From Patescibacteria group bacterium (GTDB lineage: Bacteria > Patescibacteriota > Minisyncoccia > Phycocordibacterales > Phycocordibacteraceae), in NCBI GenBank assembly GCA_038064495.1, contig JBBTSZ010000002.1, forward strand, positions 16,717 to 80,716: a stretch of 64,000 nt of DNA. The letters are read 5' to 3'. A program made the position numbers and the translations under genes. Positions 1,514 to 52,776 of this stretch are shown piece after piece; within the stretch, counting starts at the first letter, position 1, and every line of letters begins with the position of its first letter. The notes below the pieces were generated by a model. It had not been told where the DNA came from, did not search any database, and was given only the letters and a program-made list of their open reading frames with translations.

Positions 1514-1550
1514 GGCTACAGTATACCGTGAGAGACCCCTCGGGGTTTAG

Positions 1551-2096: not shown

Positions 2097-2099
2097 AGG

Positions 2100-3929: not shown

Positions 3930-3937
3930 ATAAAGAA

Positions 3938-4585: not shown

Positions 4586-4588
4586 ACG

Positions 4589-5002: not shown

Positions 5003-5050
5003 TACTCCCTAGTATATCAGGAGTTATAAGGTGCTTTGTATAAAACTACT

Positions 5051-5557
5051 CTAGTGATGGCCTCCTCCGTGCGACTTATCTTCTTTTTGACCCCCATGAC
5101 TACTACCTCCACCACCCATTTCCTTTGCTCTACCCCATGCTTGCCAAAAAAAGTGCCATAAAACACCAAAGACTCCACGACCAACACCAATCATTCGACT
5201 AAAAATACCACTATGCTCTCCGTGACTTTCATGAGATGAATGATTACTGACTTCCTCCCCACCTCTCTTACTTGTACTGCTTTCAACTACGTGATTTGGT
5301 TGTTCAGCTGATTCTGGAGTATCTGAGTCAGTAGCTTCTTCACCTCCAGCCGGACCCTCCTCTACTACTGTATATTCCCCATCGACTATTTGGTCACGAG
5401 CATCGAGGTTTCCTCGAATTTCATCGAGCCGCTCCTTTGGAGCCTCAGTATTTGCAGGTACGGGCGGCTGATACGGCACTACATCACGAGACTCACCTTC
5501 CTCAGGGTTCTGTGGTGGCTCCTCGTGGCTACCATTTCCTGGTGGGTTTTCAGACAT
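5051..5557 (-). CDS. acidic Gly/His/Glu-rich low-complexity protein with hydrophobic C-terminal segment
   Basis: ORF 168 aa, compositionally biased; within operon. Confidence 0.35.
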   Translation of the reverse strand: MSENPPGNGSHEEPPQNPEEGESRDVVPYQPPVPANTEAPKERLDEIRGNLDARDQIVDGEYTVVEEGPAGGEEATDSDTPESAEQPNHVVESSTSKRGGEEVSNHSSHESHGEHSGIFSRMIGVGRGVFGVLWHFFWQAWGRAKEMGGGGSSHGGQKEDKSHGGGHH

Positions 5558-5594
5558 GGTTCTAGCCTAGCAAGTAGTCTGCCTGATTGCACAC

Positions 5595-10891: not shown

Positions 10892-11889
10892 GGTTTCGTG
10901 TTTTGTGTTACCGCAGCAGTTTTAAAAGCGGCTCTCATAGCGGAACCAGTTGCTCCATCCGGAATCACAACTGCTTCAGAATCAAAAACGGTATTAAGTA
11001 GGCTAAGACTCCTCGCCATTTGTTGAAGCGTATTTTCATACGAACTAAGACCAATCATCGCGCGAAGCGGGTCCACTTTAATGCTCGCAAGGTCCAAAAT
11101 AACGTCGCTCATGTGCATGAGTGAGTTTGCAAGTCCAAGGTGTGCCGCCGCGGCTTCTTTCGGTACTGATATTTTCATCATCGCCTGTGCAATCTTCTGA
11201 TAATCCGTACCAATAAGAGTTACTTTTGCTAATGATGCAGCATCCCCTTTATTTACTGCGTCTGAAAAGTATTCAACTTCAGACTTCGTAGTCGGTGTGG
11301 TGTTAGCAGCAAAGGTTTTTTCTAGATCAGCCGCATAACGCGTAAGTGCTTCAGGACCCTCACCGGACACGCGTATCTGCCCCTGATTAAAGGCGTCCGG
11401 AACGACCTGGCTCGCCTTCAAATCTCCAACCCCAGCTTCCACAAACTTCACAATATCAGCCTGGGTAGGAGGAGTCGCGCCTCGCGTGCTGAGGTACTGC
11501 TCAAATAATTTGCGAGAAAACTGGTCGGTAACGGTAGTTGCTCCAGCAGTAACGCCAGGAATAGAGCTTATGTTTACCGGTGTGGTTGTTGCAGTTGCAA
11601 ACTTTGGCTTCACGAGGCCTTGGTTTACTGCTTCCCCATCGGTTACTTGTGCGTTTACGGAGTGAGCATTGTCCGGGTCGGTGCCATAGAGCGCTTCCTC
11701 CCAGTCCGGAAGGCCATCAGTGTCAGTGTCTTTTGCAGCATAGGTAACCAGGAGGTCGTGGGTTGATTCTGCGTCAACGGTTTTCGTGAAAAAAGGAACC
11801 GGACCGGAGACGACATAGGCCGAACCAATGAGCACTATGGAGATAGCTGATGCTGAAATGATGAGGGTGGTACGGGTAGAATAAGCCAC
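10888..11889 (-). CDS. membrane-anchored protein with Asp-rich (DTDxDGxPDWEE) calcium-binding-like motif; first gene of cluster
   Basis: ORF 333 aa; N-terminal hydrophobic helix; motif DTDTDGLPDWEEALYGTDPD. Confidence 0.5.
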   Translation of the reverse strand: MAYSTRTTLIISASAISIVLIGSAYVVSGPVPFFTKTVDAESTHDLLVTYAAKDTDTDGLPDWEEALYGTDPDNAHSVNAQVTDGEAVNQGLVKPKFATATTTPVNISSIPGVTAGATTVTDQFSRKLFEQYLSTRGATPPTQADIVKFVEAGVGDLKASQVVPDAFNQGQIRVSGEGPEALTRYAADLEKTFAANTTPTTKSEVEYFSDAVNKGDAASLAKVTLIGTDYQKIAQAMMKISVPKEAAAAHLGLANSLMHMSDVILDLASIKVDPLRAMIGLSSYENTLQQMARSLSLLNTVFDSEAVVIPDGATGSAMRAAFKTAAVTQNTKP

Positions 11890-33908: not shown

Positions 33909-34023
33909 CCCCAGCTACTTTGTTGTTCGCTCCGGTACTCATTCACCGTATACGCACATACGGCTCATTTCGTTCCTCACTCACGCCTCGTATCTGAGGG
34001 CTTTTGAGCACACGCATTTAAAT
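33909..34023 (+). repeat. intergenic repeat family, copy A
   Basis: CCCCAGCTACTTTGTTGTTCGCTCCGGTACTCATTCACCGTATACGCACATACGG...TTCCTCACTCACGCCTCG...GCATTTAAA; ~85% identical to copy B over ~80 nt. Confidence 0.65.
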
Positions 34024-35616: not shown

Positions 35617-37026
35617 TTAGGCTTCGTCGCGCGCGTCGTCCGCGTCAGCAATAGAGGCGTTGTCTTCATCTGATTTAGTGGATTCTGCTTCAGCAGAAAG
35701 GGTATTGTTTTCACTATCATCCTCGGTGACGATTGAATCTGACTCACCAGTGTCCACGCCAGCTTCCTTTGCAGGATCTGATTCCTCCGCTGCTTCAGCG
35801 ATTTCAATTGCTATTTCGGCGTCCGCAATAGCCGCACCTGCAGCAGCAACGCGGGCTGATGCGGAAGACTCCTCAGGAGCAGCTTCAGCAACGTTACTTC
35901 CACCAACTGAATTAATATCAATATTCCAGCCGGTCAGTTTTGCAGAAAGGCGTACATTCTGTCCTCCACGACCAATCGCAAGAGATTGCTGGTCCTCAGA
36001 CACGGTTACCTTTGCACGGTGGTCTGCTTCATCAAGCTCAACAGAGAGCACGGACGCAGGTGAAAGCGACTCCTTAATAAAGGAGGTAGGATCCTCAGAC
36101 CATTCAATGATATCAATGCGCTCACCACCGAGCTCACTCATAACGGTAGATACACGTACACCACGCTGGCCCACAAGAGAACCAACCGGGTCCACATGTG
36201 CTTCAACGGATGCAATCGCAATTTTGGTGCGACTTCCTGGCTCACGCGCGAGACCCTTTACCTCGATTGCTCCCGAAGCAAGTTCCGGTGCCTCCATCTC
36301 AAAGAGTTTAATCACAAAGCGAGGATGACTACGAGAAAGGCGAAGATACACGCCACGGAATCCCTCATCTACGGCGTAGAGGTAGGCACGAATACGCTCA
36401 CCGGGACGGTACCGCTCACCGGGAATCTGTTCCTCGTACGGGATGATACCGGTTGCACGTCCGAGGTCGATGAAGATGGCACCACGCTCAACGCGCTGTA
36501 CGACACCGGAGACAATCTCACCCTTCTTGTGACCAAACTCATCAAGAATAGAAATCTTTTCTGCCTCGCGAATCTTTTGAATTACTACCTGCTTTGCGGT
36601 TTGGGCAGCAATGCGACCGAAGTCGTCCTGTGGTTCAAGAGGGAAGACAATCTCATCCCCAAGTGCAACATCGCGCTTAATGCGACGAGCGTCATCAATC
36701 AGCATGTGCTTCTCAGCGTCGTAGCGCGGAAGTTCACCTTCAGCTACTTCCTCTTCGCGGTCGTGGTGCGGATGAACGATTTCCTCCTCCTCACCTTCCT
36801 CCGGGAAGCGAACCATAGTGTCATCAACGACGGTCTTCACCTGCTCAAAGGTAACGGTACCGGAATTCATATCCAGTTTTCCACGAACAATTTGTCCGCG
36901 CTTTCCGTACTCCTTCTTATAGGCAGTCGCCATAGCGCTTTCAATAGCGTCTACCATGACTTCTTTTGTGATACCGCGCTCTTCAAACTCACCGAGCACT
37001 GAATTGATTGTCTTGAGGTCCAACAT
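35617..37026 (-). CDS. nusA: transcription termination/antitermination factor NusA with acidic C-terminal tail
   Basis: Conserved N-terminus MLDLKTINSVLGEFEERGITKEVMVDAIESAMATAYKK, S1 and KH regions; start taken at Met 9 of ORF. Confidence 0.9.
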   Translation of the reverse strand: MLDLKTINSVLGEFEERGITKEVMVDAIESAMATAYKKEYGKRGQIVRGKLDMNSGTVTFEQVKTVVDDTMVRFPEEGEEEEIVHPHHDREEEVAEGELPRYDAEKHMLIDDARRIKRDVALGDEIVFPLEPQDDFGRIAAQTAKQVVIQKIREAEKISILDEFGHKKGEIVSGVVQRVERGAIFIDLGRATGIIPYEEQIPGERYRPGERIRAYLYAVDEGFRGVYLRLSRSHPRFVIKLFEMEAPELASGAIEVKGLAREPGSRTKIAIASVEAHVDPVGSLVGQRGVRVSTVMSELGGERIDIIEWSEDPTSFIKESLSPASVLSVELDEADHRAKVTVSEDQQSLAIGRGGQNVRLSAKLTGWNIDINSVGGSNVAEAAPEESSASARVAAAGAAIADAEIAIEIAEAAEESDPAKEAGVDTGESDSIVTEDDSENNTLSAEAESTKSDEDNASIADADDARDEA

Positions 37027-37186
37027 ATGTCTGTATTTAATTGTTCGCACCAGGGATTGATTGCTCGCCCTTTAATAAGAAATGCCCGCTTCGCGGACAT
37101 CTCGGATACCCATAACGTACCATATATAGGAGCACTTCGTCAATAAACACCAATGTGGTAGGGTGGCTCCAGAAAGGAGAGCACTC

Positions 37187-37387
37187 ATGCCGAGGCTTTT
37201 TGTGAGCTGGGTGGACCGCTGTCCATCAAAACCTATCGAGTTTGGAAACACTACGCTCGACTATCACGATCCGAGTTCTGATAAAGATATCAAACTACTC
37301 CAGCTCACTATTGGGAATAGGCTGGAGAAGGAAGTAGGAGGGATTCATATTGTTACCATCCTGTGGTTTAAGCTATTGACTGAATAA
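37187..37387 (+). CDS. small hypothetical protein (66 aa) upstream of pilB
   Basis: Strong SD AAAGGAG 7 nt before ATG at 37187. Confidence 0.4.
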   Translation: MPRLFVSWVDRCPSKPIEFGNTTLDYHDPSSDKDIKLLQLTIGNRLEKEVGGIHIVTILWFKLLTE

Positions 37388-37460
37388 TTCTCCACGATTG
37401 CACCATATACGCGCCGCATCTTCTCGTGCGGCGCGTTATACTTTTAGCAAGCATCTTTCT

Positions 37461-39215
37461 ATGCAAGTTTCAGAGACCGAACTAAAAACTTTTATTCTCG
37501 ATTCCGGGCTTGTTCCACGCAAAGATGTGGAAGCGGCAGACGAGGAAGCCAAGAAACGAAATCAATCCATCGGTGACATTCTGGTGTCATCCGGCGCACT
37601 CACTCCAGACGCACTTCGTCGCATCAAGGCGTACGTGCTCGGTATCCCTTTCGTGAATCTAAAAGATAAGAAGATTGAGCTCGATGTGCTCTCCCTTATC
37701 CCGGAGCCAATCGCACGCACGCACAGCATTGTCGCGTTTCGTAAGGACGGCACGAACCTTGAAGTGGCGATGCTTGATACCCAGGACCTCCAAGCCATCG
37801 ATTCAGTCAGAAAGAAGACCGGACTCAAGATTTTGCCTCGTCTTACGGACGACGACTCTCTCAAACACTCACTCCTTCAGTATCAAAAATCCCTTAAAGA
37901 GGAGTTTGGTGACCTCATTGCGACCGAGGCTGGCAGGATTAACCTAATAAAGGACGCGGACGGAGATGATGTCTCCGGTGAGGACCTAAAGAAAATGGCA
38001 GAAGACCTGCCAATTGTGCGTATTGTAGACACCCTCCTTCGTCACGCCATCATCCAGGATGCTTCCGATATTCATATTGAACCTATAGAGGAGGCAACGC
38101 TCGTGCGGTACCGCATCGACGGCATTCTCCACGACGCGATGACGCTCCCGAAGAATGCAGGTCCCGGCATCACCGCTCGTATTAAGGTGCTTGCAAACTT
38201 AAAGCTCGACGAGAAGCGTCTTCCCCAGGACGGACGTTTCAAGATGGAAACCGAGACCGACAAAGTGTCCTTCCGTGTCTCACTTCTCCCAACCTACTAC
38301 GGAGAAAAAATCGTGATGCGTCTTTTGCGTGAGACCGGCGACGGGTTCTCCCTTGAAGGGCTCGGGTTCCACGGAGAAACTCTTGAGCGCATCCACTCCG
38401 CAACCAAACAAACGACGGGCATCATCCTCATCTCAGGACCAACGGGTTCCGGTAAAACCACGACCTTGTACACGGTGCTCGATATCTTGAATCGTCCGGA
38501 CGTGAACATCTCCACGATTGAAGACCCGATTGAATATCAGATGAAGCGCGTGAACCAAACGCAGGTGAACCCAGCCATCGGCTTCACGTTTGCAAACGGA
38601 CTACGCGCACTCCTTCGCCAGGACCCGAACGTCATCATGGTGGGAGAAATTCGTGATGGTGAGACTGCCTCGCTCGCGATTAATGCAGCACTCACCGGAC
38701 ATGTCGTACTTTCTACTATTCACACCAACTCCGCGAGTGGCGCCATTCCGCGTTTGATGGATATGGGCGTGGAACCCTTCCTCCTCGTGTCCACCCTGAA
38801 GCTGATTGTGGGACAGCGTCTCGTCCGTAGACTCTGTGACGACAAAGAAGCCTATACGCTTGATGATACGGAGCGTGCAAAAGTCGCAGCTGACGAGCAT
38901 TTTGAAGCGGCGTTCGGTGCACTTAAAGAAGAAAAGCTCACCAAGGACGACATGAAGCTCGGAGCACTTCCGTTCTATCATCCCAAACCGTCTGCAGAGT
39001 GTGAGGACGGGTACAAGAGCCGACTCGGTATTCATGAAATCCTTGCCGTTTCTCCAACCATCAAGGATTTAATTCTCCACGGCGCGTCTCCCGACGATAT
39101 TGAAAAGCAGGCACGCAAAGAAGGAATGCTCACGATGCTTGAAGACGGCATCTTCAAAGCCGCACGTGGCGTGACCTCACTTGAAGAAGTGCTTCGCGCC
39201 GTCAACGACGGGTAG
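37461..39215 (+). CDS. pilB: type IV pilus assembly ATPase PilB (GspE family)
   Basis: N-terminal GSPII_E_N-like region, Walker A GPTGSGKTTT, Asp box, His box; start taken at MQVSETEL. Confidence 0.85.
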   Translation: MQVSETELKTFILDSGLVPRKDVEAADEEAKKRNQSIGDILVSSGALTPDALRRIKAYVLGIPFVNLKDKKIELDVLSLIPEPIARTHSIVAFRKDGTNLEVAMLDTQDLQAIDSVRKKTGLKILPRLTDDDSLKHSLLQYQKSLKEEFGDLIATEAGRINLIKDADGDDVSGEDLKKMAEDLPIVRIVDTLLRHAIIQDASDIHIEPIEEATLVRYRIDGILHDAMTLPKNAGPGITARIKVLANLKLDEKRLPQDGRFKMETETDKVSFRVSLLPTYYGEKIVMRLLRETGDGFSLEGLGFHGETLERIHSATKQTTGIILISGPTGSGKTTTLYTVLDILNRPDVNISTIEDPIEYQMKRVNQTQVNPAIGFTFANGLRALLRQDPNVIMVGEIRDGETASLAINAALTGHVVLSTIHTNSASGAIPRLMDMGVEPFLLVSTLKLIVGQRLVRRLCDDKEAYTLDDTERAKVAADEHFEAAFGALKEEKLTKDDMKLGALPFYHPKPSAECEDGYKSRLGIHEILAVSPTIKDLILHGASPDDIEKQARKEGMLTMLEDGIFKAARGVTSLEEVLRAVNDG

Positions 39216-39232
39216 GAGGACATCCTCACATT

Positions 39233-39330
39233 CCCAACTGCTTTGTTGTTCGCTCAGGTACTCGTTCACCGTATATGAATACGACTCACTTCATTCCTCA
39301 CTCACGTCTCGCATTTAAAAACGTGAGAAC
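39233..39330 (+). repeat. intergenic repeat family, copy B (directly upstream of pilC)
   Basis: CCCAACTGCTTTGTTGTTCGCTCAGGTACTCGTTCACCGTATATGAATACGACTCACTTCATTCCTCACTCACGTCTCGCATTTAAAAA. Confidence 0.65.
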
Positions 39331-39354
39331 GTCCTCATGCTACGATATTTGTAA

Positions 39355-40572
39355 ATGAAATTCCGAGTCACGCTCAAGAGTGAGAATGGTTCTGAAGAGA
39401 AGCGGGTAATAGAGGCCGCGTCACGTTTCGCAGTATATGGAGAAGTAGAGAAAGAGGGTGCCACAGTGGTCTCTATTGAAGACGGAGAGGGGAGCACGAT
39501 TGATTTTAAGAAACTCACCACCTTTAATATCGGCACCGGAGTGAAGTTTGAAGAGCGTATTGTCTTTACGAAAAACCTTTCAGCCATGCTTTCAGCAGGG
39601 CTTTCACTTTCTCGTGCACTCTCTGTTATTGAGCGTCAAACGCGCAACAAACGCTTGAAGGAGATTGTCGTGAGTCTCTCAGAAGAGGTGAAGAAAGGCT
39701 CTGCGTTCCACGAGGCGCTTGCCATGCATCCAAAGATCTTCACCAAGCTCTTTATTGCGATGACAAAAGCAGGAGATGAGTCCGGCACCGTTGCCGATGC
39801 ACTGAAGATTGTGGCTCGACAGATGGAACGTTCCAACAACCTCAGCAAGAAGATCCGCGGCGCGATGATTTATCCGTGCATTATTCTCTCCGCCATCGTT
39901 ATTATCGGTGTGCTGATGCTTATGTACGTGGTCCCAACGCTCTCCAATACCTTTAAGGAACTCGGTGTTGCACTTCCATTTGCGACACAGGTCATTGTGA
40001 ATGCGTCCGACTTCATGGCCTCGCACGTGATTCTGGTGTTCATTATGCTCGGAGCATTCTTCGGCATCATTCTCCTCTTCACACGCTCAAAGGTTGGCTC
40101 ACGCTTGATACTTGCCGCATCGCTCCACATGCCGGTGATTGGAGACCTCGTGCGCGAAACCATGAGCGCTCGCGCCGCTCGAACCATGTCCTCACTCCTT
40201 ACGTCCGGAGTTGAAATGCTTACGGCTATTTCCATTACGGAAGAAGTGGTTGGAGACAATATCTTCGGAAAGGTAGTCGGAGAAGCTGCCGTACGTGTAA
40301 AAAAGGGTGAGGCACTTTCAGCTGCCTTCATGGCCTATCCAGATCTCTATCCCGTCTTTATCTCAGACATGATTGCCGTGGGTGAAGAAACCGGAAATGT
40401 CTCTAACATGCTTCTGCAGGTGGCTGAATACTACGAAACGGACGTGGAAGACCGCACGAAAGATTTATCCACAATCATTGAACCCATTCTCATGCTCGTC
40501 ATCGGTGTTGCGGTCGGTATTTTTGCGGTTGCGATGATTACGCCGATTTACTCCCTCTCTTCAAAGATCTAA
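39355..40572 (+). CDS. pilC: type IV pilus inner-membrane platform protein PilC (GspF family)
   Basis: Two T2SSF-type repeats with 3 TM helices. Confidence 0.85.
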   Translation: MKFRVTLKSENGSEEKRVIEAASRFAVYGEVEKEGATVVSIEDGEGSTIDFKKLTTFNIGTGVKFEERIVFTKNLSAMLSAGLSLSRALSVIERQTRNKRLKEIVVSLSEEVKKGSAFHEALAMHPKIFTKLFIAMTKAGDESGTVADALKIVARQMERSNNLSKKIRGAMIYPCIILSAIVIIGVLMLMYVVPTLSNTFKELGVALPFATQVIVNASDFMASHVILVFIMLGAFFGIILLFTRSKVGSRLILAASLHMPVIGDLVRETMSARAARTMSSLLTSGVEMLTAISITEEVVGDNIFGKVVGEAAVRVKKGEALSAAFMAYPDLYPVFISDMIAVGEETGNVSNMLLQVAEYYETDVEDRTKDLSTIIEPILMLVIGVAVGIFAVAMITPIYSLSSKI

Positions 40573-40589
40573 GGAGTGTGTTTAAAAAT

Positions 40590-40700
40590 CCCAACTCCTT
40601 CGTTATCCACTGCTCTCAAAGATTCACCGTACTAAAGAGTAGGACTCGTCTTTTCCTTTGTGGGCGTCTCGGATTTGCGAATTTTTTAGCTCACACTCCA
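40590..40700 (+). repeat. intergenic repeat family, copy D (diverged; upstream of pilin gene)
   Basis: TCCCAACTCCTTCGTTATCCACTGCTCTCAAAGATTCACCGTACTAAAGAGTAGGACTCGTCTTTTCC...GCGTCTCGGATTT; shares blocks CCCAACT, CTT.GTT, TTCACCGTA, GACTC, CGTCTCG.ATTT with A/B. Confidence 0.5.
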
Positions 40701-40725
40701 CGTTTGCGTGCGGTATCATACGTGC

Positions 40726-42450
40726 ATGGTTCCTTCTCGTTCCATTCGCGGTGTCACACTCGTAGATGCGATTGTTGGTTCTGCACTCGTTCTCGTTATT
40801 TTCCTTGCACTTGTGGGCCTCATGCGTGCCTCACTCCTCGTTGCTTCTCTCGCAAAAGTAAAAGCCGGCGCAACTGCCGTTGCAAACACGCAACTGGAGT
40901 ATATTCGCTCACTTCCGTACGACTCAGTCGGAACCGTTGGTGGTATTCCTGCCGGCGAGATTGCTCAGTATTCAACTACTACCCAAAACTCCGTCGCCTA
41001 CGGCCTAAAAACATTCATTGAGTATGTAGACGACCCTGCTGACGGAACTGATGCGGCTGACACAAACACCATCACCACGGACTACAAACAGGTAAAAGTC
41101 ACGGTGAGTTATCTGGTGAAGGGACAACTCCGACAGGTTTCAATGGTCTCAAATTATGCTCCCCCTTCTATCGAAACGGCAACGAACGGAGGAACACTCA
41201 AGGTAATTGTAGTAAACGCAACCGGAGCGCCTGTCGCAGGTGCGCAGGTGCGCGTGGTAAATGCAAGTACGTCACCCACCATTGATGTCACGACGTTCTC
41301 TGACGTGCTTGGAGAAGTCTTGCTCGGGGGTGCCGCGACGTCCACACAGTATCAAGTATATGTCTCTAAAACTGGCTACTCCAGCGCTCAAACATATGCG
41401 CGGGATGGAACGAATCAGAATCCTAACCCGGGATATCTTACGGTAGTAAAGAACGCTACGACCGCGGGAACCTTTGCCATTGACGCGCTAGCCTCCTTTA
41501 CGATGAATACTTATTTCCCAATTGCAGCAACCACCACACTTGACGCATTTAACGATACTTCACTACTCGCGAGTCAGACAAATACGCAGATAAATGCAAG
41601 TGAGCTAACCTTGTTGGATAACGGCGCAACGGGGTACTCCTTAAGTGGTTCAGCTGATTCTGTTGCTATTTCGCCTCCACTTCTTGTGTCTTGGGTCGTT
41701 GCTTCAACCACCACTTCTTCGCCATCTGGGACACAAGCTCGCGTGAGAGTCTATGACGGAAGCGGATACCTCCTCCCCGATGCAGAAGTCCCGGGGAACA
41801 GCTCCGGTTTTGACGGACCGTCTATTGACCTGACACAGGTATCAACGACCTCCTATCCAACGTTGTCACTTCACGCTGACCTTTCCACAAACGCAACAAC
41901 GACAACTCCCACAATTGCTTATTGGAGTATCACAGCTCTTGTAGGACCTACCCCTGCACCGAACGTCCCGTTCACGTTTACGGGAGCAAAAACCATTGGA
42001 ACAACTGGAGCTGGAGCAGCCATTTACAAAACCGTCATCTCATCACTCACTTCTGGTCTGGGCACAATCACACTTTCTCCGGAATGGGATTCCTATCTAC
42101 TTTCCGTTACAGGCTATGACGTAGTGGATGCCTGCTACGCGCCATCGTATGCGCTCTCGCCTGCGAGCGTGACCACAGCTTCTCTGTATATAGATACACA
42201 AACAGCTAACTCAATGCTTGTTGCGGTGCGCGACACCACGGGTGCGTATGTGAGTGGGGCATCAGTCACTCTGTCTCGCACTGGTTACTCAAGTACCGTC
42301 CAAACCTCATCCTGCGGTGCGGCGTACTTTGGAAGTATTACGGCAGATAATGCATACAGCGTACAAATTCAAAAGACAGGCTACACAACTACCACGTACA
42401 CGAACGTAACGGTTGGCGGCCAGACGTTTTATTCAGCTTCTTTCCCGTAA
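40726..42450 (+). CDS. large prepilin-type (pseudopilin) protein, Thr/Ser-rich with two carboxypeptidase-regulatory-like beta-sandwich segments
   Basis: N-terminus MVPSRSIRG^VTLVDAIVGSALVLVIFLAL (type IV pilin-like, acidic residue at +5); segments LKVIVVNATGAPVAGAQVRVV... and SVTLSRTGYSSTVQ... resemble CarbopepD_reg-like folds (inference). Confidence 0.6.
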   Translation: MVPSRSIRGVTLVDAIVGSALVLVIFLALVGLMRASLLVASLAKVKAGATAVANTQLEYIRSLPYDSVGTVGGIPAGEIAQYSTTTQNSVAYGLKTFIEYVDDPADGTDAADTNTITTDYKQVKVTVSYLVKGQLRQVSMVSNYAPPSIETATNGGTLKVIVVNATGAPVAGAQVRVVNASTSPTIDVTTFSDVLGEVLLGGAATSTQYQVYVSKTGYSSAQTYARDGTNQNPNPGYLTVVKNATTAGTFAIDALASFTMNTYFPIAATTTLDAFNDTSLLASQTNTQINASELTLLDNGATGYSLSGSADSVAISPPLLVSWVVASTTTSSPSGTQARVRVYDGSGYLLPDAEVPGNSSGFDGPSIDLTQVSTTSYPTLSLHADLSTNATTTTPTIAYWSITALVGPTPAPNVPFTFTGAKTIGTTGAGAAIYKTVISSLTSGLGTITLSPEWDSYLLSVTGYDVVDACYAPSYALSPASVTTASLYIDTQTANSMLVAVRDTTGAYVSGASVTLSRTGYSSTVQTSSCGAAYFGSITADNAYSVQIQKTGYTTTTYTNVTVGGQTFYSASFP

Positions 42451-42490
42451 TATGCGTGACTCCACTCCGTCAGAGAACAAATCGCGAGGA

Positions 42491-43099
42491 ATGCTAAAAA
42501 AACAAAAGCATTGTCTACCAGGATTCACTCTAGTTGAAATGATTGTCGTAATTTTTGTTACGGGTATTGTAGGGATTGCACTAAACTCTCTCATTGTAAA
42601 TTTTTATCGCTCAAATGCGTACTTGCTTCAGCAAACTTCAGCAATTGACAGTGCTCATCGCGGACTTGAGACTTCCTTTGTTGATTTGCGTGAGGCATCG
42701 TATGGCGACGATGGTTCGTATCCAATTCTGTCAGCAGCAACCTCCTCAGTCATCTTTTTCAGCGACATTAACGGAGATGGTTCGGTTGAGAAAGTTCGCT
42801 TGTATCTACAAAGTGGTACTTTCTATCGCGGTGTTACTAACTCCACCTCGAGCCCACCGGTCTACACTGGGCAATCTGAAGCAACAACGACCATTGCGAC
42901 GTACGTACGAAACGCCTCCAGCACACCACTCTTCAGGTATTACGGTGTAGATGGTATAGAACTCTCCGCGACAAGTACGGTAGATGTTTCAAAGATTAGT
43001 TCAGTATCAACCTCTGTCATGGTGGACCTCAATCCGCTTCGCGCACCTGATATCCTTACGCTACAAGCAACTGCCACTCTCAGAAACCTTCGACAATAA
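42491..43099 (+). CDS. prepilin-type minor pilin/pseudopilin
   Basis: Canonical class III signal MLKKQKHCLPG^FTLVEMIVVIFVTGIVGIAL. Confidence 0.7.
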   Translation: MLKKQKHCLPGFTLVEMIVVIFVTGIVGIALNSLIVNFYRSNAYLLQQTSAIDSAHRGLETSFVDLREASYGDDGSYPILSAATSSVIFFSDINGDGSVEKVRLYLQSGTFYRGVTNSTSSPPVYTGQSEATTTIATYVRNASSTPLFRYYGVDGIELSATSTVDVSKISSVSTSVMVDLNPLRAPDILTLQATATLRNLRQ

Positions 43100-43101
43100 T
43101 T

Positions 43102-44526
43102 ATGCACACCTCACCCCGCGGATACCTTATGCTTATGGCCATTGTATTCGGCTCCATTTTTCTTGGTGTTGTTGGGGCTCTCAGTAGCTTTGTACTGACG
43201 GAAAATAAACTGCAAAGCAGTAACACTGATAAAAACAAAGGATTTGCAATTGCGGAAGCTGGTATTGAATACTACAAATGGCATCTCGCACACTTTCCAG
43301 CTGACTTACAGAATGGAACAGGGGTACCGGGACCGTACACTATTCCATATTACGACCCAGAAACGGGTGCGCAGACAGGAACAGTTACTCTTACCGTCAC
43401 CGGGAACAGTTTGTGTGGGGGAGTAACTTCCATAGATCTAGAATCAAAAGGACAGTCTGTTGGGAGTACGAAAACGGCTACTATTTTTGCCCGTTATGCC
43501 AGGCCCACTGTTGCCGAATACGCATATGTCTTAAACAATACGGTCTGGGCAGGCGCAGATCGCATTATTAACGGCAAATACCACAGTAATGGAGGAATTC
43601 GCATGGACGGGACCGCAAACGCACCCGTGACCAGTTCACTTTCAAGCTGGTCGTGTACGTCGTCCTACGGTTGTAGTCCAACTGCGACAAAAGACGGTGT
43701 TTGGGGAGCGGGACCAAACCAAAATCTCTGGAGCTTTCCTGTACCACAGATAGACTTCTCAGCAATTGCAGCGAATTTTACGACACTCCAAGCAACGGCA
43801 CAGGCACAGGGTATTTATTATTCACGGTTTAGTTCTGGGAATGGGGGGGTCTCCTTCTACAAGGGCTACCACTTAGTCTTTAATAATGGTGGAACCGTAA
43901 CGGTCTATAAAGTAACAAGCCAAAATATTCTTCAGGCTTGGCCAATTAACAATCCAAGCGCCTCAAGCCAGATTTCTGACTATACGAGCATCAAGAATGA
44001 AACCCTCGTTGGTACGTACACCATCCCTGCTGCTTGCCCACTTATTTATATTGAGGACCATGTGTGGATTGAAGGAGTCGTAAGTCAAAAAGTGACCGTG
44101 GTGGCAGCTGACGCGGTGCACTCTGGTGTCGTGCCCTACGTCGTGATTAAAGGAAATATCACCTATGCAACCAATAACGGAAGCTCAGGACTTACGGTAA
44201 TTTCTCAGGGAGACGTGCTCATCAGTCCAAACTCACCGCAAAATATGAATCTGAACGGCATCTTTATTGCGCAGACCGGGGCGTTTGGTAGGAATCTGTA
44301 CGCCTGTCCAAGTAGTTACGAGCCGAGAGGAACACTCACCATTCAAGGAACAACCGTTTCGTATAAACGAACAGGTACTCGTTGGGTGAACGGCTGTGGT
44401 TCGGGTAGTGATGCAGGGTACCAAAGTCGTATTGACTCCTATGACCGAAAACTAGCGACCGACCCACCTCCGTTTACTCCGTATACCTCAACCGACTTTA
44501 AATTCGTTGACTGGCGCCAAAAGTAA
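43102..44526 (+). CDS. PilX-like minor pilin / pilus-associated protein with N-terminal hydrophobic anchor
   Basis: MLMAIVFGSIFLGVVGALSSFVLTE N-terminus; follows pilin genes with 2-nt spacing. Confidence 0.5.
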   Translation: MHTSPRGYLMLMAIVFGSIFLGVVGALSSFVLTENKLQSSNTDKNKGFAIAEAGIEYYKWHLAHFPADLQNGTGVPGPYTIPYYDPETGAQTGTVTLTVTGNSLCGGVTSIDLESKGQSVGSTKTATIFARYARPTVAEYAYVLNNTVWAGADRIINGKYHSNGGIRMDGTANAPVTSSLSSWSCTSSYGCSPTATKDGVWGAGPNQNLWSFPVPQIDFSAIAANFTTLQATAQAQGIYYSRFSSGNGGVSFYKGYHLVFNNGGTVTVYKVTSQNILQAWPINNPSASSQISDYTSIKNETLVGTYTIPAACPLIYIEDHVWIEGVVSQKVTVVAADAVHSGVVPYVVIKGNITYATNNGSSGLTVISQGDVLISPNSPQNMNLNGIFIAQTGAFGRNLYACPSSYEPRGTLTIQGTTVSYKRTGTRWVNGCGSGSDAGYQSRIDSYDRKLATDPPPFTPYTSTDFKFVDWRQK

Positions 44527-44538
44527 GAGTGGTATCAT

Positions 44539-45288
44539 GTGCGCATGCTCATCGTCGCCAACTGGAAGGCCTTTGTAGAGACTAAAGACAAGGCGGGACG
44601 CCTTCTTGTGAGTGCAAAACGCATCAGCGCACAGCACCATCATGACATTGTGCTCGCGCCACCAGCACCCTTTCTCGGTCTCCTTGCGGGCACGAATCGT
44701 TCCAAAGTTGCATTTGCTGCGCAGGATGTTTCAGCTACGCTTGGCGGAGCGGAAACGGGTGAGGTTACGGCTCCCGTTCTCGCCGGATTCAAAGTAAGTC
44801 ATGTCATTATTGGTCACTCGGAGCGTCGTGCACGTGGAGACACTGATGTAACTGTTCTTGAAAAAGTGCGACGAGCACTTGCACACGGCCTCACTCCAAT
44901 CTTGTGCATTGGTGAAAAAACACGTGACGACGACGGGGCGTATCTGCAATTCCTACGGTCACAGCTCTCCGCCATCTACGAACCGCTGACTCTGAAAGAA
45001 CGTCTCAAAATTATTGTTGCCTATGAACCTATTTGGGCTATCAATCATGATGCTGGCGAAGCCATCGGGCACGCTGACTTAACAGAAATGGTGCTCTATA
45101 TCCGAAAGCTTCTAAGCGAGTATCTTCCTGGGAAGGGCTCAACTTCGGCGAAGATTTTGTATGGTGGTTCGGTTGAGACGGGGAATGCACGAGACCTTGC
45201 GGCAAGTTCCGGCATTGATGGGTTTCTTGTCGGCCACGCAAGTACTGATACCACGACGTTCACTGCCTTGTGTAAGGCAGTGTCCTAA
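44539..45288 (+). CDS. tpiA: triosephosphate isomerase
   Basis: ANWK, IGHSERR, active-site E region. Confidence 0.9.
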   Translation: MRMLIVANWKAFVETKDKAGRLLVSAKRISAQHHHDIVLAPPAPFLGLLAGTNRSKVAFAAQDVSATLGGAETGEVTAPVLAGFKVSHVIIGHSERRARGDTDVTVLEKVRRALAHGLTPILCIGEKTRDDDGAYLQFLRSQLSAIYEPLTLKERLKIIVAYEPIWAINHDAGEAIGHADLTEMVLYIRKLLSEYLPGKGSTSAKILYGGSVETGNARDLAASSGIDGFLVGHASTDTTTFTALCKAVS

Positions 45289-45293
45289 GCGCT

Positions 45294-46430
45294 ATGCGGA
45301 GCGTCCGCGACATACCTGAATATAAAAATGTACCTATCTTGGTACGTGCAGCACTGAACGTACCGGTCGCGGATGGCGTGGTCGTTGATACGTTCAGACT
45401 TCGTCAGGCACTGCCGACCATAGCGTATTTACAAGAGCGTGGAGCCAAAGTAATTTTACTCGGTCACGTTACCGGCACAGGAGCAGAATCTCTGAAGCCT
45501 ATGTACGAAGTACTGAAGAAAATGCTTCCTGCTGTTGAGTTCTCACCAACCACTATTGGGAAAGAAGTGCGCGCGCTCGTGCGCGCCATGCGACCGGGAG
45601 ATGTCCTCATGCTTGAGAATCTCCGCCGCTTTAAAGGAGAGGAATCAAATGACCTTGATTTTACAGCGTCACTTGCGGAACTTGCTGACGTATTTGTACA
45701 GGACGCCTTTGATGTATGTCATCGAGCACACGCATCCGTGGTAGGCCTTCCGAAGTTGCTTCCGTCGTACCTCGGACTGTTGGTAGAGAAAGAAGTTGAA
45801 GAATTATCAAAAGCGCTTTCTCCTAAACATCCCGCACTCGCGATAATTGCTGGCGCAAAATTCAGTACCAAGGAGCCAGTGCTCCATACACTTCTGTCGT
45901 CCTACGACCAGGTCTTCGTTGGCGGCGCGCTTGCGAATGACTTTCTTGAGGCTAAAGGATTTTTCGTTGCAGATTCACTCGTCTCGGGAGGAAATGAAAC
46001 CGAGATGAAGAAATTGGCAGCACTACCAGAACTTCTGTTGCCAGAAGATGTCTATGTGGCAGAAAAGGAAGCTGCGCGCTCCGAGAGCAAAATTGTGAGT
46101 GTTTCTGACATCTCTGACCACACCGCGATTCTTGATGTGGGACCGAACAGTATTACATCACTCCTTCCGTATATTAAAAAAGCGAAAACCATACTATGGA
46201 ACGGAACGCTCGGGCGGTACGAACATGGCTTTACCGAAGGAACGCGCCTTCTGGCTGAAGCCATTACCGAGAGTAACGCACACAGTATTCTTGGTGGGGG
46301 AGACACGGTAGCAGCACTTGATGCACTAGGGCTCACCAAAAAGTTCTCCTTTGTTTCTACCGGAGGTGGAGCGATGCTGGACTTCCTCGCTGAAGGAACC
46401 CTCCCTGGGCTTGAGGCGCTTACAAACTAA
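45294..46430 (+). CDS. pgk: phosphoglycerate kinase
   Basis: Global PGK similarity (N-terminal R/D basic patch, ATP-binding C-domain). Confidence 0.9.
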   Translation: MRSVRDIPEYKNVPILVRAALNVPVADGVVVDTFRLRQALPTIAYLQERGAKVILLGHVTGTGAESLKPMYEVLKKMLPAVEFSPTTIGKEVRALVRAMRPGDVLMLENLRRFKGEESNDLDFTASLAELADVFVQDAFDVCHRAHASVVGLPKLLPSYLGLLVEKEVEELSKALSPKHPALAIIAGAKFSTKEPVLHTLLSSYDQVFVGGALANDFLEAKGFFVADSLVSGGNETEMKKLAALPELLLPEDVYVAEKEAARSESKIVSVSDISDHTAILDVGPNSITSLLPYIKKAKTILWNGTLGRYEHGFTEGTRLLAEAITESNAHSILGGGDTVAALDALGLTKKFSFVSTGGGAMLDFLAEGTLPGLEALTN

Positions 46431-46882: not shown

Positions 46883-48616
46883 ATGTACCCCCTCCACGAC
46901 GCACTTACCGATGAACTTCGTCAAGAACTGAAAGCACACGACGACTTCACAGCAGGATTGCTCGCCCGTCGCGGTATACGAACAGGCGCCGAAGCGGAAA
47001 CATTCCTCTCACCTTCCTACGAGGCGCACATCCATGACCCACTGCTCATCCTCAACCTGGAGAAGGCAGCGAAGCGTGTTGCGAGCGCACTTGATACGAA
47101 CGAGAAAATTGCAGTGTGGAGTGACTACGACTGCGACGGAATACCGGGTGGCGTCATTCTGCATGATTTTCTTAAAAAGGTCGGCGCAAATTTTTGTAAC
47201 TACATTCCGCATCGCCATAACGAAGGCTATGGTGTGAACATTCCAGGAATTGAACAATTGGCACGTGACGGGGTACAGCTCGTCATCACCGTAGATTCCG
47301 GCATCACCGACCTTGAAGCAGTTGCCCGCGCGAAAGAACTCGGCATGGATGTGATTGTGACTGACCACCATCTTCCGGGAGACATCCTACCGGACGCGTT
47401 TGCGGTCATTGATCCGAAACAACATGGTGAAACTTATCCGTTTCGTGAACTCTGCGGAGCAGGACTCGCCTGGAAGCTCGTATGCGCAGTACTCACCGTT
47501 GGTTTTACTGGGAGGGAAGCGATACCCGAAGGATGGGAAAAGTGGCTCCTTGATATGGCAGGGCTCGCAACGATTGCCGACATGGTGCCTCTTACGGGAG
47601 AGAACCGTGTTATCGCAAAGTACGGACTTCTCGTCATGCGCAAGTCTCCACGACTCGGTTTGAATAGACTCTGCAAAGTTGCCCGCGTAGACCAGCGAAA
47701 GATTACCGAGGATGACGTCGCGTTCATGATTGCTCCACGCGTGAACGCGGCGTCACGCATGGGTGACCCACGTGATGCGTTCACACTCCTCACTACTACA
47801 GACGAAACCATTGCCGATACACTCGCCAAGAAACTTGAGGCGGTGAATCGAAGTCGCAGGGCGGCAAGCGGTGCTATTACGCGCGCAGTGCATGAAAAAC
47901 TCGCGCATCGAAAAGAAACAGAAGAAATACCGGAAGTCATTGTACTTGGGGATCCCGATTGGCGACCCGGTCTTCTCGGTCTGGTTGCAAGCGGTATCGC
48001 TGACGAATACGAACGGCCGGTATTCTTGTGGGGACGGGAAGGTTCACAAGTGTTGAAGGGATCGTGCCGTGGAGGCCCGGGCGGCCTACATGTGGTTGAC
48101 CTCATGACGGCAGCGGGAGATGTCCTTTCTGAGTTTGGTGGTCATGCTGCCGCAGGAGGTTTCAGTCTACTTCCCGAAAACGTGTTTCAGCTTGAAGAAA
48201 GATTTATTCAAGCGTTCCACACACTCCCACCACCCGGGGGTGATGACCGCTTCAGTCGTGCAGACGCACATATCACCCCAAGTGAAGCGACTCGCGAACT
48301 TCTTTCGCGACTGACGCGCATGGCACCCTTTGGTATGAGCAATCCAAAACCGACCTTTGTGATGCGCGGGGTGCTACTACAGAAAGTCTCGTGGTTTGGA
48401 AAGTCTGAAGAACATCTGCGCATCACCATTACAAATGCCGTGGACGACTTTGATGAACATGCCATCGAGGCAATCGCATTTTATGCGACCCGGGAACTGG
48501 GCTCATCAGTTAAGTTGCTCACGGCAGGTTCCACAGCAACTATTTTGGCAACACTGGAGCAGGATTTGTTTACGAGGGGACAGCCGGTAAGGCTTCGCCT
48601 TGTCGCGATCACGTAG
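46883..48616 (+). CDS. recJ: single-stranded-DNA-specific exonuclease RecJ
   Basis: DHH (VITDHH) and DHHA1 motifs. Confidence 0.85.
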   Translation: MYPLHDALTDELRQELKAHDDFTAGLLARRGIRTGAEAETFLSPSYEAHIHDPLLILNLEKAAKRVASALDTNEKIAVWSDYDCDGIPGGVILHDFLKKVGANFCNYIPHRHNEGYGVNIPGIEQLARDGVQLVITVDSGITDLEAVARAKELGMDVIVTDHHLPGDILPDAFAVIDPKQHGETYPFRELCGAGLAWKLVCAVLTVGFTGREAIPEGWEKWLLDMAGLATIADMVPLTGENRVIAKYGLLVMRKSPRLGLNRLCKVARVDQRKITEDDVAFMIAPRVNAASRMGDPRDAFTLLTTTDETIADTLAKKLEAVNRSRRAASGAITRAVHEKLAHRKETEEIPEVIVLGDPDWRPGLLGLVASGIADEYERPVFLWGREGSQVLKGSCRGGPGGLHVVDLMTAAGDVLSEFGGHAAAGGFSLLPENVFQLEERFIQAFHTLPPPGGDDRFSRADAHITPSEATRELLSRLTRMAPFGMSNPKPTFVMRGVLLQKVSWFGKSEEHLRITITNAVDDFDEHAIEAIAFYATRELGSSVKLLTAGSTATILATLEQDLFTRGQPVRLRLVAIT

Positions 48617-49198: not shown

Positions 49199-50683
49199 AT
49201 GCAGGACCTGCTCGCACTCCTTGCACTCATCAGTTTTGCACTCGGCGTTGCGTGCGCGTCAATAGTTATAGTTCCGCACGTGGGACTGTATTTTTTGCTT
49301 CTTCTTGCCCTCGTCTGCTTTGGGGCGTGGTTCTTTGCGCGAAAAGATTGGTATCTGATTCCTTCCCTCTTTCTCTTATTCCTTGCGTTTGGCATAGGGA
49401 GAGTCATGCTTACTCCACAAGAACTACCGCATACGTTTGAAGAACGAGTCGGAACAAAGGTAACGCTTGTTGGTACGATTGCGAGTGATCCTGATATTCG
49501 CGAGACGACCCAACGGATTACAGTCCGAATACAGGAGGGGAGTGAACACACCAAGGTCCTTGTCGTCACTGACCGATACACAGCGTTTTCCTATGGCGAT
49601 CAGATTTCAGTTGAAGGTATGCTGACGCGACCGAAACCCTTTGAAACTGACGGAGGTCGGGAGTTTGCGTATGACCAGTTTCTCGCAAAGGACGGAATCT
49701 TTTCCATGATTAATTTCGCACGCGTTGAAAAGACGGGCATGACAGACTCACTGCTCATGCGCGGACAGCAACTTCTCTACGAGGGTAAACATCAGTTTGC
49801 TAAAGGACTTGAAGCGAGTCTTTCAGAACCACACGCAAGCCTTGCTGAGGGACTCCTTGCAGGAGGGAAACAAGGTCTCGGCAAATCTCTCCTTGATGCG
49901 TTCACCATAACGGGATTACTTCCCATCATCGTTCTTTCTGGCTACAACGTCATGATTGTCGCCGAAGCTATACTTATCGGCTTCTCGTTTTTGAGAAAGC
50001 GCCATGCGCTCGTCCTCGCAACGCTCACCATTATTTTGTTTATTCTCGCAGCCGGTGGAGGCTCGTCTGCAGTACGGGCAGGACTCATGGCTGGACTCGC
50101 ACTCTTTGCACGCATGACCGGTCGCACCTACGACGCACTGCGAGCCCTCGCTGCCACGTTCGTCATCCTGCTTCTGTACAATCCACTTCTGCTTATCTAC
50201 GATCCTGGATTTCAATTCTCATTTGCGGCAACTCTCGGTCTCATTGTCGCGTCCCCACTGTTTGGAAAAAGACTGCTCCGCATTCGCATGAAAAGTATTC
50301 GTGAAGTGCTTTCGACCACGCTTGCCGCACAACTCTTCGTGCTTCCGCTCCTTTTGTATCAAACGGGGAATCTTTCGCTCGTCGCGATTCCTGCAAACAT
50401 ACTCGTACTTCCGGTTATTCCCTTTGCCATGGCGTTCGCTGCAATCGCCGGCGTGGTCGGAATTCTCGTTCCACTAGCAGCTCCTTTCTTTGGACTACCA
50501 GCGTACGCACTCCTTTCATATGTCATCGGTGTTGCCGAGAGCGCCTCTCATATTCCATTTGCGCACGTCATCATCCCGCTCTTTTCTGCAGTTTTCCTGC
50601 TGGTCGCCTACAGCTTGATTGCTGTGCTCGTTGTTCGGTTACAAAAAAGCGCAGCCTCTACGGCTGCGCTCCCTACACCGTAA
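49199..50683 (+). CDS. comEC: ComEC/Rec2-family competence channel protein (OB/DUF4131 + polytopic competence domain, no beta-lactamase domain)
   Basis: N-terminal TMs, OB-like VTLVGTIASDPDIRETTQRITVRI, then ~8 TM helices. Confidence 0.75.
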   Translation: MQDLLALLALISFALGVACASIVIVPHVGLYFLLLLALVCFGAWFFARKDWYLIPSLFLLFLAFGIGRVMLTPQELPHTFEERVGTKVTLVGTIASDPDIRETTQRITVRIQEGSEHTKVLVVTDRYTAFSYGDQISVEGMLTRPKPFETDGGREFAYDQFLAKDGIFSMINFARVEKTGMTDSLLMRGQQLLYEGKHQFAKGLEASLSEPHASLAEGLLAGGKQGLGKSLLDAFTITGLLPIIVLSGYNVMIVAEAILIGFSFLRKRHALVLATLTIILFILAAGGGSSAVRAGLMAGLALFARMTGRTYDALRALAATFVILLLYNPLLLIYDPGFQFSFAATLGLIVASPLFGKRLLRIRMKSIREVLSTTLAAQLFVLPLLLYQTGNLSLVAIPANILVLPVIPFAMAFAAIAGVVGILVPLAAPFFGLPAYALLSYVIGVAESASHIPFAHVIIPLFSAVFLLVAYSLIAVLVVRLQKSAASTAALPTP

Positions 50684-51900: not shown

Positions 51901-52776
51901 ATGAGCGAGAGGAACGGAAGAGAAGGATTGTACTGGCTGTTTCTTATCGTGTTAGTTGTCTGTAACGTGTACGTATTTTTGGTCCTCTACACGCCTCCTA
52001 CGCATACTCTCCGGGTTTCATTTTTGGATGTGGGCCAAGGCGACTCTATTTTGATACAGGGACCAACCGGCATACAAATGCTCGTGGATGGGGGTCCGGA
52101 CCGCTCCGTACTGCGCGAGCTTTCGCACGAACTCCCACCGTGGGATAGGACTATCGATGTACTTGTGGAAACGCATCCTGACAAAGATCATATTGCTGGG
52201 CTGGGTGATGTGCTTGAGCGTTACCGCGTGAAGTACTTTCTCGAGTCGGGGATTCCAGACCGAACCAGTGTATCGCTTCATGTGAAGGACGACGTCACAA
52301 AAGAAAAAGGAATACAGCACATAACGGTAAAGCGAGGTATGCGCCTCAACCTTGGTGGGGGAGCCTACGCATATGTGCTCTTTCCGGACCGTGATGAATC
52401 CACTCAAACAGAAACCAACGACGGCTCAATCGTACTCCACGTGGTGTATGGAGCCACTTCATTCCTACTTACTGGAGATTTACCGAGCACGTACGAGGAC
52501 TACCTGGTAGGACTCGATAGCCACGACGGGAATCTCACCAGTACGGTACTCAAGGCAGGTCATCACGGCTCAAAATATTCAACCGATAGTCTGTGGCTCG
52601 CTGCGGTCACCCCAAGCTACGTAGTCATTTCCGCAGGGAAAGATAATTCGTATGGGCATCCTGCACCGGAGACGCTCGCGCGAATTACCGATTACGGGAA
52701 AGCACAAATACTTTCAACGATTGATGTGGGCCGGATTGATTTTACGAGTAACGGCACAACGCTTATCTACAAGTAA
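51901..52776 (+). CDS. membrane-anchored metallo-beta-lactamase-fold protein, ComEC C-terminal-domain-like (stand-alone)
   Basis: N-terminal TM; LDVGQGDSILIQ...DGG...HPDKDHIAG motifs match ComEC beta-lactamase-like domain. Confidence 0.7.
   Translation: MSERNGREGLYWLFLIVLVVCNVYVFLVLYTPPTHTLRVSFLDVGQGDSILIQGPTGIQMLVDGGPDRSVLRELSHELPPWDRTIDVLVETHPDKDHIAGLGDVLERYRVKYFLESGIPDRTSVSLHVKDDVTKEKGIQHITVKRGMRLNLGGGAYAYVLFPDRDESTQTETNDGSIVLHVVYGATSFLLTGDLPSTYEDYLVGLDSHDGNLTSTVLKAGHHGSKYSTDSLWLAAVTPSYVVISAGKDNSYGHPAPETLARITDYGKAQILSTIDVGRIDFTSNGTTLIYK

Follow-up and report, generated by a model that had tools for sequence, protein, structure and literature searches.

The 64,000-nucleotide stretch analysed here (the window) belongs to contig JBBTSZ010000002.1 of a metagenome-assembled genome whose host is a monoderm-like member of the Patescibacteria, of the Parcubacteria/Paceibacterota type. 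It contains five contiguous plus-strand genes, in the order pilB, pilC and the genes of three pilin-like proteins of 574, 202 and 474 aa (the large, the mid and the third protein below), located between a divergent nusA (35617-37050, minus strand) and tpiA-pgk (from 44539). We consider it likely that these genes belong to a type IV pilus, for which they would supply PilB as the motor, PilC as the platform and a complex of three minor-pilin subunits. An initial annotation, made from the letters of the window, had already described a type IV pilus locus with pilB and pilC followed by three prepilin-like genes, and this description is borne out by the T2SSE and T2SSF matches and by the contiguity of the genes. 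Direct support for our reading comes from the domain content, the predicted folds, the class-III-type N-termini, the homology to pilins that match the N_methyl model, the strict synteny and the variation of a middle domain in the large protein.

The gene pilB (37461-39215, plus strand; the reading frame opens with a TTG at 37398 but the ATG at 37461 is the likely start) codes for a pilus extension ATPase of 584 aa that matches Pfam T2SSE (407 bits, E=5e-122) and MshEN (52 bits) and has the Walker A motif GPTGSGKT at 38436. The gene pilC (39355-40572, plus strand) codes for an inner-membrane platform protein of 405 aa in which Pfam T2SSF is found in two stretches, corresponding to its repeats (185 bits, E=6e-55). 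In other words, the pair has the composition of PilB and PilC, a T2SSE ATPase with a Walker A motif and a two-repeat T2SSF platform. PilB scores 541 bits against TIGR02538, which is under the equivalog cutoff of 676, and the GspF and PilC NCBIfam matches of the platform protein are also under their equivalog cutoffs. Since the NCBIfam cutoffs for PilB, GspE, GspF and PilC are not reached, we classify the two proteins at the level of superfamilies only, PilB/GspE and PilC/GspF.

The locus was compared with 83 related loci (L001-L083, ~1.5 Mb), with some of the counts below taken from 81 loci or from 69 distinct loci. The five-gene order is present in all 83, as far as the contigs reach, usually with nusA upstream and tpiA downstream, so the linkage of the pilin-like genes to assembly ATPase and platform genes holds in the window and in all related loci. 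PilB is 73-89% identical across these loci. A scan of GTDB species genomes gave 145 loci, and each of the best 80 carries a label such as Parcubacteria, Kaiserbacteria or Paceibacterota.

The three pilin-like proteins

The large gene (40726-42450, plus strand) has 575 codons including the stop, and its 574-aa product is identical to the NCBI protein MEK7601919.1. The protein begins with MVPSRSIRG/VTLVDAIVGSALVLVIFLALVGL (the slash marks the putative cleavage site), i.e. with a short basic leader that ends in Gly9, followed by VTLVD with Asp at position +5, as the initial annotation had noted. Class III signals, in which a short basic leader running to a Gly is followed by about 20 hydrophobic residues, are found in all three proteins and are conserved throughout each family. 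In the family of the large protein Gly-1 and Asp +5 are invariant in 88 aligned homologues, and a start of the [RK]G/[MVF][ST][LF][IVM]D type ([RK]G/x[ST]xxD) is seen in 71 of 81 loci. The wider family was collected with the first 150 residues, which retrieved 595 clusters at E<=1e-10 (phmmer, 1.84 billion representatives). Its distant members carry Glu at +5, and three of them (P0480, P0440 and P0507) pass N_methyl at 22.4-25.7 bits (PF07963 threshold 21.2). The Asp5 N-terminus is therefore a variant that derives from genuine prepilin N-termini.

The AlphaFold2 model of the large protein, calculated from the 88-sequence alignment, has a predicted local distance difference test (pLDDT) score of 87.9. 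The structure prediction that the initial annotation had proposed gave a GspI-like pilin module followed by four beta-sandwich domains. The module (residues 1-150; 40726-41175, plus strand) comprises the leader with Gly9, the Asp at +5, a long helix alpha1 (residues 12-62) and a four-stranded sheet that extends to about residue 145; in this model it has the pilin fold, in which the long helix at the N-terminus lies against an antiparallel beta-sheet. The first extension domain, D1 (residues 151-265; 41176-41520, plus strand), is a predicted beta-sandwich of the transthyretin-like/CarboxypepD_reg type and is the best conserved of the extension domains. D2 (residues 266-412; 41521-41961, plus strand) is modelled as a jelly-roll beta-sandwich like those of sugar-binding modules. 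No other domain varies as much (its entropy within the close family is 1.53 as compared to 0.91 in D1), and we regard D2 as a candidate ligand-binding module. D3 (residues 413-492, Ig-like) and D4 (residues 493-574, a second CarboxypepD_reg domain) are encoded together at 41962-42450 on the plus strand and are predicted with pLDDT values above 90.

The two carboxypeptidase-regulatory-like stretches that the initial annotation recognized are also seen with Pfam, which finds CarboxypepD_reg (PF13620) twice (E=4e-16, 59.5 bits with the cutoff at 32.3); the best stretch covers residues 506-571 of the 580-aa reading frame. The Thr/Ser-rich segments described there are real in terms of composition (15% Thr, 11% Ser), but they are not linkers, as they fold into beta-sandwiches with pLDDT values mostly above 90 in the model. 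Two cysteines, C470 and C530, are invariant. A profile search of the PDB with the family gave a cohesin-type match to the last domain (E=0.03) as the sole hit, and the large protein does not correspond to a GspI/PilV-type 'I' minor pilin in the strict sense, i.e. a small pilin (~120 aa) that combines the GspI fold with a T2SSI-family sequence signature.

The modular build of the protein is evident from its relatives; among the scored candidates, 838 reach E<=0.001. Almost all of the best 120 have a length of 560-580 aa and are 55-70% identical. In the databases, proteins of this family are named 'carboxypeptidase-like regulatory domain protein', 'autotransporter adhesin' or hypothetical protein. 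A short form without D4 (about 480 aa when mature) occurs in 22 of 81 loci. The distant relatives (440 to 1,549 aa) keep the pilin module and the first CarboxypepD_reg domain, and their middle part is replaced by other modules, i.e. Laminin_G_3, DUF2341, right-handed beta-helix/NosD, pentaxin, He_PIG or fn3. The description of this pilin as unusually large is thus relative, as more than 800 proteins of about 570 aa belong to the family, and a pilin module combined with PF13620 is among the common types of modular pilins (PMC8179133).

The mid gene (42491-43099, plus strand, with an alternative ATG at 42452) encodes a minor pilin of 202 aa with a canonical prepilin-type N-terminus, ...CLPG/FTLVEMIVVIFVTGIVGIAL, where the motif PG/FTLVEM places Glu at +5. 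Its description as canonical is confirmed by the N_methyl match (24.0 bits against a cutoff of 21.2), which is shared by 40 of the 43 family members. RG/FTL[IAV]E is conserved in this family, relatives of the protein number 589 at E<=0.001 among the candidates scored, and the family profile matches the PDB only at the N-terminal part of pilins (E=8e-4). We propose that it is the J-like subunit, as its gene lies between an I-like and a K-like one.

The third gene (43102-44526, plus strand) encodes a protein of 474 aa that begins with MHTSPRG/YLMLMAIVFGSIFLGVVGAL (RG/YLMLM) and has no acidic residue at +5. In its family this position is occupied by Leu or Met, as in the tip subunits of the GspK/PilX class, and the lack of an acidic +5 residue in the conserved RG/YLML motif fits a capping subunit. 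The AlphaFold2 model (pLDDT 83, predicted template modelling score 0.79) consists of the pilin helix (alpha1, residues 7-64) and sheet (residues 79-133), followed by a large beta-rich domain of the beta-solenoid type. Structurally it comes closest to ComZ, a tip pilin of the competence system, and the model combines, as ComZ does, a GspK-like pilin domain with a beta-solenoid of the ice-binding-protein type. Six cysteines are invariant, and 2,156 relatives were found at E<=0.001 among the candidates scored. No match to PilX_N (PF14341) or T2SSK at E<=1, to N_methyl or to any other Pfam model was found in the 72 members of the family. The label 'PilX-like' given to this protein in the initial annotation was therefore dropped. 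The family profile had no match in the PDB either, and no sequence alignment to ComZ was obtained, so we describe the protein as a putative ComZ/GspK-type tip pilin, the likeness being one of predicted fold only.

We note that the public annotation of the third gene (AAB472_00315, 463 aa) begins at Met12 and thereby loses RG/YLML (43102-43137). This start is probably 11 codons too short, because the motif is conserved in most homologues, and the ATG at 43102, 2 nt past the preceding stop, is the better start.

The proposed tip complex and its alternatives

The order of the three genes mirrors that of gspI-J-K and pilV-W-X, and there is a precedent in PilA-B-C of Streptococcus sanguinis, which is why we read them as a priming and capping complex. 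The three proteins would assemble on PilC via their N-terminal helices, prime the polymerisation of a major pilin and finally cap the filament. We place the gene of the major pilin elsewhere in the genome because further pilin genes within 10 kb are rare, being found in only 3 of the related loci. The 474-aa subunit, with its ComZ-type beta-solenoid and without an acidic +5 residue, would be on top, and the canonical 202-aa pilin and the GspI-like 574-aa subunit would be beneath it. The latter would project a stalk of ~420 residues composed of a transthyretin-like, a variable lectin/CBM-like (carbohydrate-binding-module-like) jelly-roll, an Ig-like and a second transthyretin-like domain. Such a stalk may present a ligand-binding module, with a glycan of the host cell surface as the most likely ligand, and the solenoid subunit may bind DNA or another ligand. 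Cleavage by PilD, the ternary complex, the location at the tip and the ligands are what we infer by analogy with the characterized systems discussed below.

The initial annotation had suggested that an adhesin-like giant minor pilin tips or decorates the pilus. That this protein is a minor pilin resembling an adhesin, positioned at the tip or close to it, is supported by the GspI-like module, the invariant Gly-1 and acidic +5 residue, the N_methyl-positive distant homologues and the strict linkage to pilB and pilC, but it is better described as one member of a three-gene, I-J-K-like tip and priming complex.

Several observations weigh against this interpretation. The large protein fails the Pfam N_methyl model and has Asp instead of Glu at +5. 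The check with pilin-specific models proposed at the outset gave matches for the mid protein and for distant homologues of the large protein, and none for the large and third proteins of the window. Profile comparisons (hhalign) with the subunits of Escherichia coli K-12 gave probabilities of 22% for the large family and GspI, 35% for the mid family and GspJ and 0.4% for the third family and GspK, all too weak for membership. The J-like role proposed for the mid protein derives from gene order, and the folds are those of predicted models, not solved structures. Finally, a prepilin peptidase, a major pilin, PilM/N/O and PilT are absent from the window and, in general, from the 10 kb around the related loci. 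The initial annotation was correct that the window has no prepilin peptidase, PilM/N/O or secretin: reading of the open reading frames, motif scans and Pfam searches of ten unknown proteins found no Peptidase_A24, PilM/N/O, secretin or second T2SSE ATPase in the 64 kb. As for the search for pilD that it had proposed, the window and the 83 related loci were covered with motif and Pfam searches, and no Peptidase_A24 gene or G.GD.K motif was found in them. PilD is reported to be widespread in the Candidate Phyla Radiation (CPR; PMC6744442).

An alternative that we consider unlikely, and which partly overlaps with the tip-complex interpretation, is that the block builds a short pseudopilus, a Com-like or type II secretion-like piston that serves mainly DNA uptake or protein export. 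The layout of ATPase, platform and pilin genes is indeed like that of comG operons, the best structural match of the third protein is a competence pilin, neither a major pilin nor PilT is encoded nearby, and at a distance of 2.4-8 kb downstream there are recJ, comEC and a gene for a ComEC-type beta-lactamase; moreover, CPR genomes reportedly combine pili with genes for DNA uptake (PMC6744442). However, the motor scores 541 bits as PilB/GspE as opposed to 258 bits as ComGA, and the platform 297 bits as GspF/PilC as opposed to 149 bits as ComGB; with such differences a comG-type competence operon was rejected. The adjacency of comEC is moreover lost in relatives such as L001, and a long lectin-like stalk with a variable module would suit the binding of cells or glycans better than that of DNA.

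It is less probable still that the 574-aa protein is an ordinary surface adhesin with an uncleaved membrane helix, which lies next to pil genes by coincidence. Its short basic leader with an invariant Gly-1 and an acidic +5 residue, the predicted GspI-like fold, the unbroken series of homologues leading to Glu5 proteins that pass N_methyl and its fixed place between pilC and two more pilin-like genes in 83 loci all speak against this explanation. On the other hand, the protein matches neither N_methyl nor the NCBIfam pilin models, the database names of the family point to a regulatory-domain protein or an autotransporter adhesin, the extension is similar to stalks found in sortase pilins and in adhesins, and PilD was not found in the regions searched. 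The idea that the 574-aa protein is the major subunit of an unusually thick pilus is very improbable: most related loci have no other pilin gene and the protein is highly conserved and keeps an acidic +5 residue, but a rigid extension of ~420 residues on each subunit would be hard to pack helically, the pilin module matches an I-type minor pseudopilin and not the major pilins, the middle module differs among relatives as in tip adhesins, and small pilins are encoded elsewhere in CPR genomes (PMC6744442, PMC11623550).

The tip-complex interpretation can be taken one step further, although we offer this step tentatively. The GspI-like subunit may be the carrier of a 'receptor-binding cassette' at the tip, in which the conserved pilin module and the first domain of the stalk hold out an exchangeable middle module. 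This module would set the host surface that the episymbiont recognises, and the same tip, with its ComZ-like cap, could bind both host glycans and DNA. The modules would then be a CBM-like jelly-roll here and a lectin of the concanavalin A (ConA) type, a right-handed beta-helix/NosD-like domain, a pentaxin or an Ig domain in the relatives. By analogy with phage tail fibres and tailspikes, the beta-helix versions might depolymerise host polysaccharide.

Regulatory elements, repeats and neighbouring genes

The terminator scan showed a GC-rich hairpin (37409-37436) that abuts a TATACT box (37437-42), and the whole element (37409-37442, plus strand) ends 18 nt before the ATG of pilB. The box is probably the -10 element of pilB, with an upstream hairpin of the terminator-like or regulatory kind. 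GCG[CT]TATACT is found upstream of pilB in nearly all related loci, and a strong hairpin (dG <= -20 kcal/mol) precedes pilB in about 25 of the 69 distinct loci, with stems that differ in sequence yet still pair. Possible roles of the hairpin are those of a 5' stem-loop, an operator or a terminator fused to the -10 box. A riboswitch was not found in the nusA-pilB spacer, where Rfam gave no match at the gathering thresholds and only chance-level ones at E<=10. TATACT or TATCAT boxes also end 6-7 nt before the start codons of several genes that are first in their operons, the large pilin gene among them; the starts are at 1513 (minus), 5002 (minus), 40726 (plus), 48765 (plus), 51901 (plus) and others. 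This spacing suggests leaderless mRNAs, as well as an internal promoter before the three pilin genes.

The initial annotation reported a small open reading frame with a ribosome-binding site before pilB and two copies of an intergenic repeat between the pil genes. The 66-aa reading frame (37187-37387, plus strand) and the Shine-Dalgarno-like AAAGGAG 7 nt upstream of it are real, but no conservation was seen: it has no tblastn match in the 83 related loci and no Pfam or NCBIfam match, and it is a singleton cluster in a collection of 15 billion proteins. It was therefore rejected as a conserved pilus component and probably lies outside the pilus system. As for the repeat, the copy in the pilB-pilC spacer (r2; 39233-39314, plus strand) is clear, being 84.5% identical over 84 nt to a copy at 33910-33993 in the rny-clpP spacer, and its minus strand folds at -50.6 kcal/mol (z=-5.35). 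The copy downstream of pilC (r3; ~40588-40690, plus strand, in the spacer before the large gene) has diverged; it shows loosely colinear conserved blocks in the alignment and is not detected by blastn at E<=1. The three copies are ~85 nt long, have a central CCGTAT..ATACGG hairpin and lie in one orientation even though the flanking genes are on opposite strands. Among the 83 related loci a copy occurs in a single one (L063:3032-3134), so a widely conserved RNA was rejected and the repeat is lineage-specific; it is possibly a small mobile element or one like the repetitive extragenic palindromes. In the relatives, the pilB-pilC and pilC-large spacers hold small unrelated genes at the place of the repeat copies, i.e. 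a NUDIX gene, a 2'-5' RNA ligase-like gene and one for a 112-aa protein of unknown type (L002:7794-8162, L002:9457-9993 and L001:8312-8650), and both spacers seem to be insertion hot spots.

Downstream of the pilin-like genes, tpiA starts 12 nt past the last of them and pgk starts 5 nt past tpiA (44526-46430). In view of this close spacing the glycolytic genes appear to be co-transcribed with the genes of the pilus tip, and the arrangement of the third gene, tpiA and pgk is retained in most of the 83 loci. Further on are recJ (46883-48616), the membrane part of comEC (49199-50683) and a ComEC-type metallo-beta-lactamase gene (51901-52776), a series interrupted by sodA and a NUDIX gene; the relative L001 has no comEC membrane gene at the equivalent position. 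At the other end of the window, a block on the minus strand (536-11889) contains conjugation-like type IV secretion genes of the Patescibacteria type, among them those of a VirB4/TraG P-loop ATPase (2100-3929), a PrgI/VirB3-like protein (4589-5002) and a TrbL/VirB6-like membrane protein of 895 aa (6687-9374), and also encodes several large secreted or membrane proteins without a Pfam match. This block agrees with the Patescibacteria system described in PMC12102498.

Relation to known systems and significance

The I-J-K-like gene order is shared with the GspI-GspJ-GspK and PilV-PilW-PilX tip complexes of type II secretion and type IVa pili (PDB 3CI0, 5VTM). In contrast to these, the locus lacks an H subunit; its I-like subunit measures 574 aa, with Asp at +5 and four additional domains; its K-like subunit has a beta-solenoid in place of the alpha-domain of GspK; the sequence similarity is negligible; and the host is monoderm-like with no secretin in the window. 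ComZ of Thermus thermophilus consists of a GspK-like pilin domain with an inserted solenoid like that of ice-binding proteins. It binds DNA, through lysines located between its two domains, and the neighbouring pilin PilA2, and is argued to be compatible only with a position at the tip of the pilus (PMC6561018). The third protein is predicted to share the fold of ComZ (PDB 6QVI, 6QVF for ComZ and PilA2), but has no detectable sequence similarity to it, and its host is unrelated to T. thermophilus and has no outer membrane.

The closest functional precedent is the PilA-PilB-PilC complex of S. sanguinis, a GspIJK-like tip complex with modular 'open wings' (PMC9934059, PMC8179133). There too a monoderm pilus has three operon-encoded minor pilins, one of them without Glu5, and two with bulky grafted modules that are thought to cap the pilus and to mediate adhesion, including that to glycans. 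The modules are a von Willebrand factor A and a ConA-lectin domain there, and a transthyretin-like/CBM-like stalk and a beta-solenoid here; moreover, the I-like PilA is small and unmodified, whereas the I-like subunit of the window carries the stalk. Within the Patescibacteria, the Saccharibacteria (TM7x) proteins PilX1 and PilX2 are likewise large minor pilins with non-canonical signal peptides; they carry C-terminal lectin-like domains and are proposed tip adhesins for host binding (PMC11623550). Their modules are a beta-jelly-roll and a beta-propeller, and they belong to another lineage than the Paceibacteria-type protein described here.

Modular pilins are known to be widespread. The combination of IPR012902 and PF13620, in which a pilin module is followed by CarboxypepD_reg domains as in the large protein, is among the 15 commonest modular pilin architectures, with many representatives from CPR phyla (Raynaud et al. 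2021, PMC8179133). The protein of the window and its close relatives escape the IPR012902 definition because the Asp5 N-terminus misses the N_methyl signature. As large lectin-bearing minor pilins with non-canonical signals are also known from Saccharibacteria (PMC11623550), the locus is a further, good example of a design already known and not a new kind of system. The new elements are the Asp5 subfamily, the use of a GspI-type subunit to carry the stalk, the ComZ-like partner within a lineage of monoderm-like CPR bacteria and the strict synteny of the five genes. Since Asp replaces Glu at +5, a family of several hundred clusters goes unnoticed in searches based on signatures (N_methyl/IPR012902, PilFind-type rules).

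Most Patescibacteria are uncultured and apparently live attached to other cells, and the molecules with which they choose and hold their hosts are little known beyond a few Saccharibacteria. The conserved block described here provides candidates in the very large Parcubacteria/Paceibacterota lineage, namely an I-like subunit with a variable lectin-like module and a K-like subunit that resembles ComZ, the only structurally characterised DNA receptor of a pilus tip.

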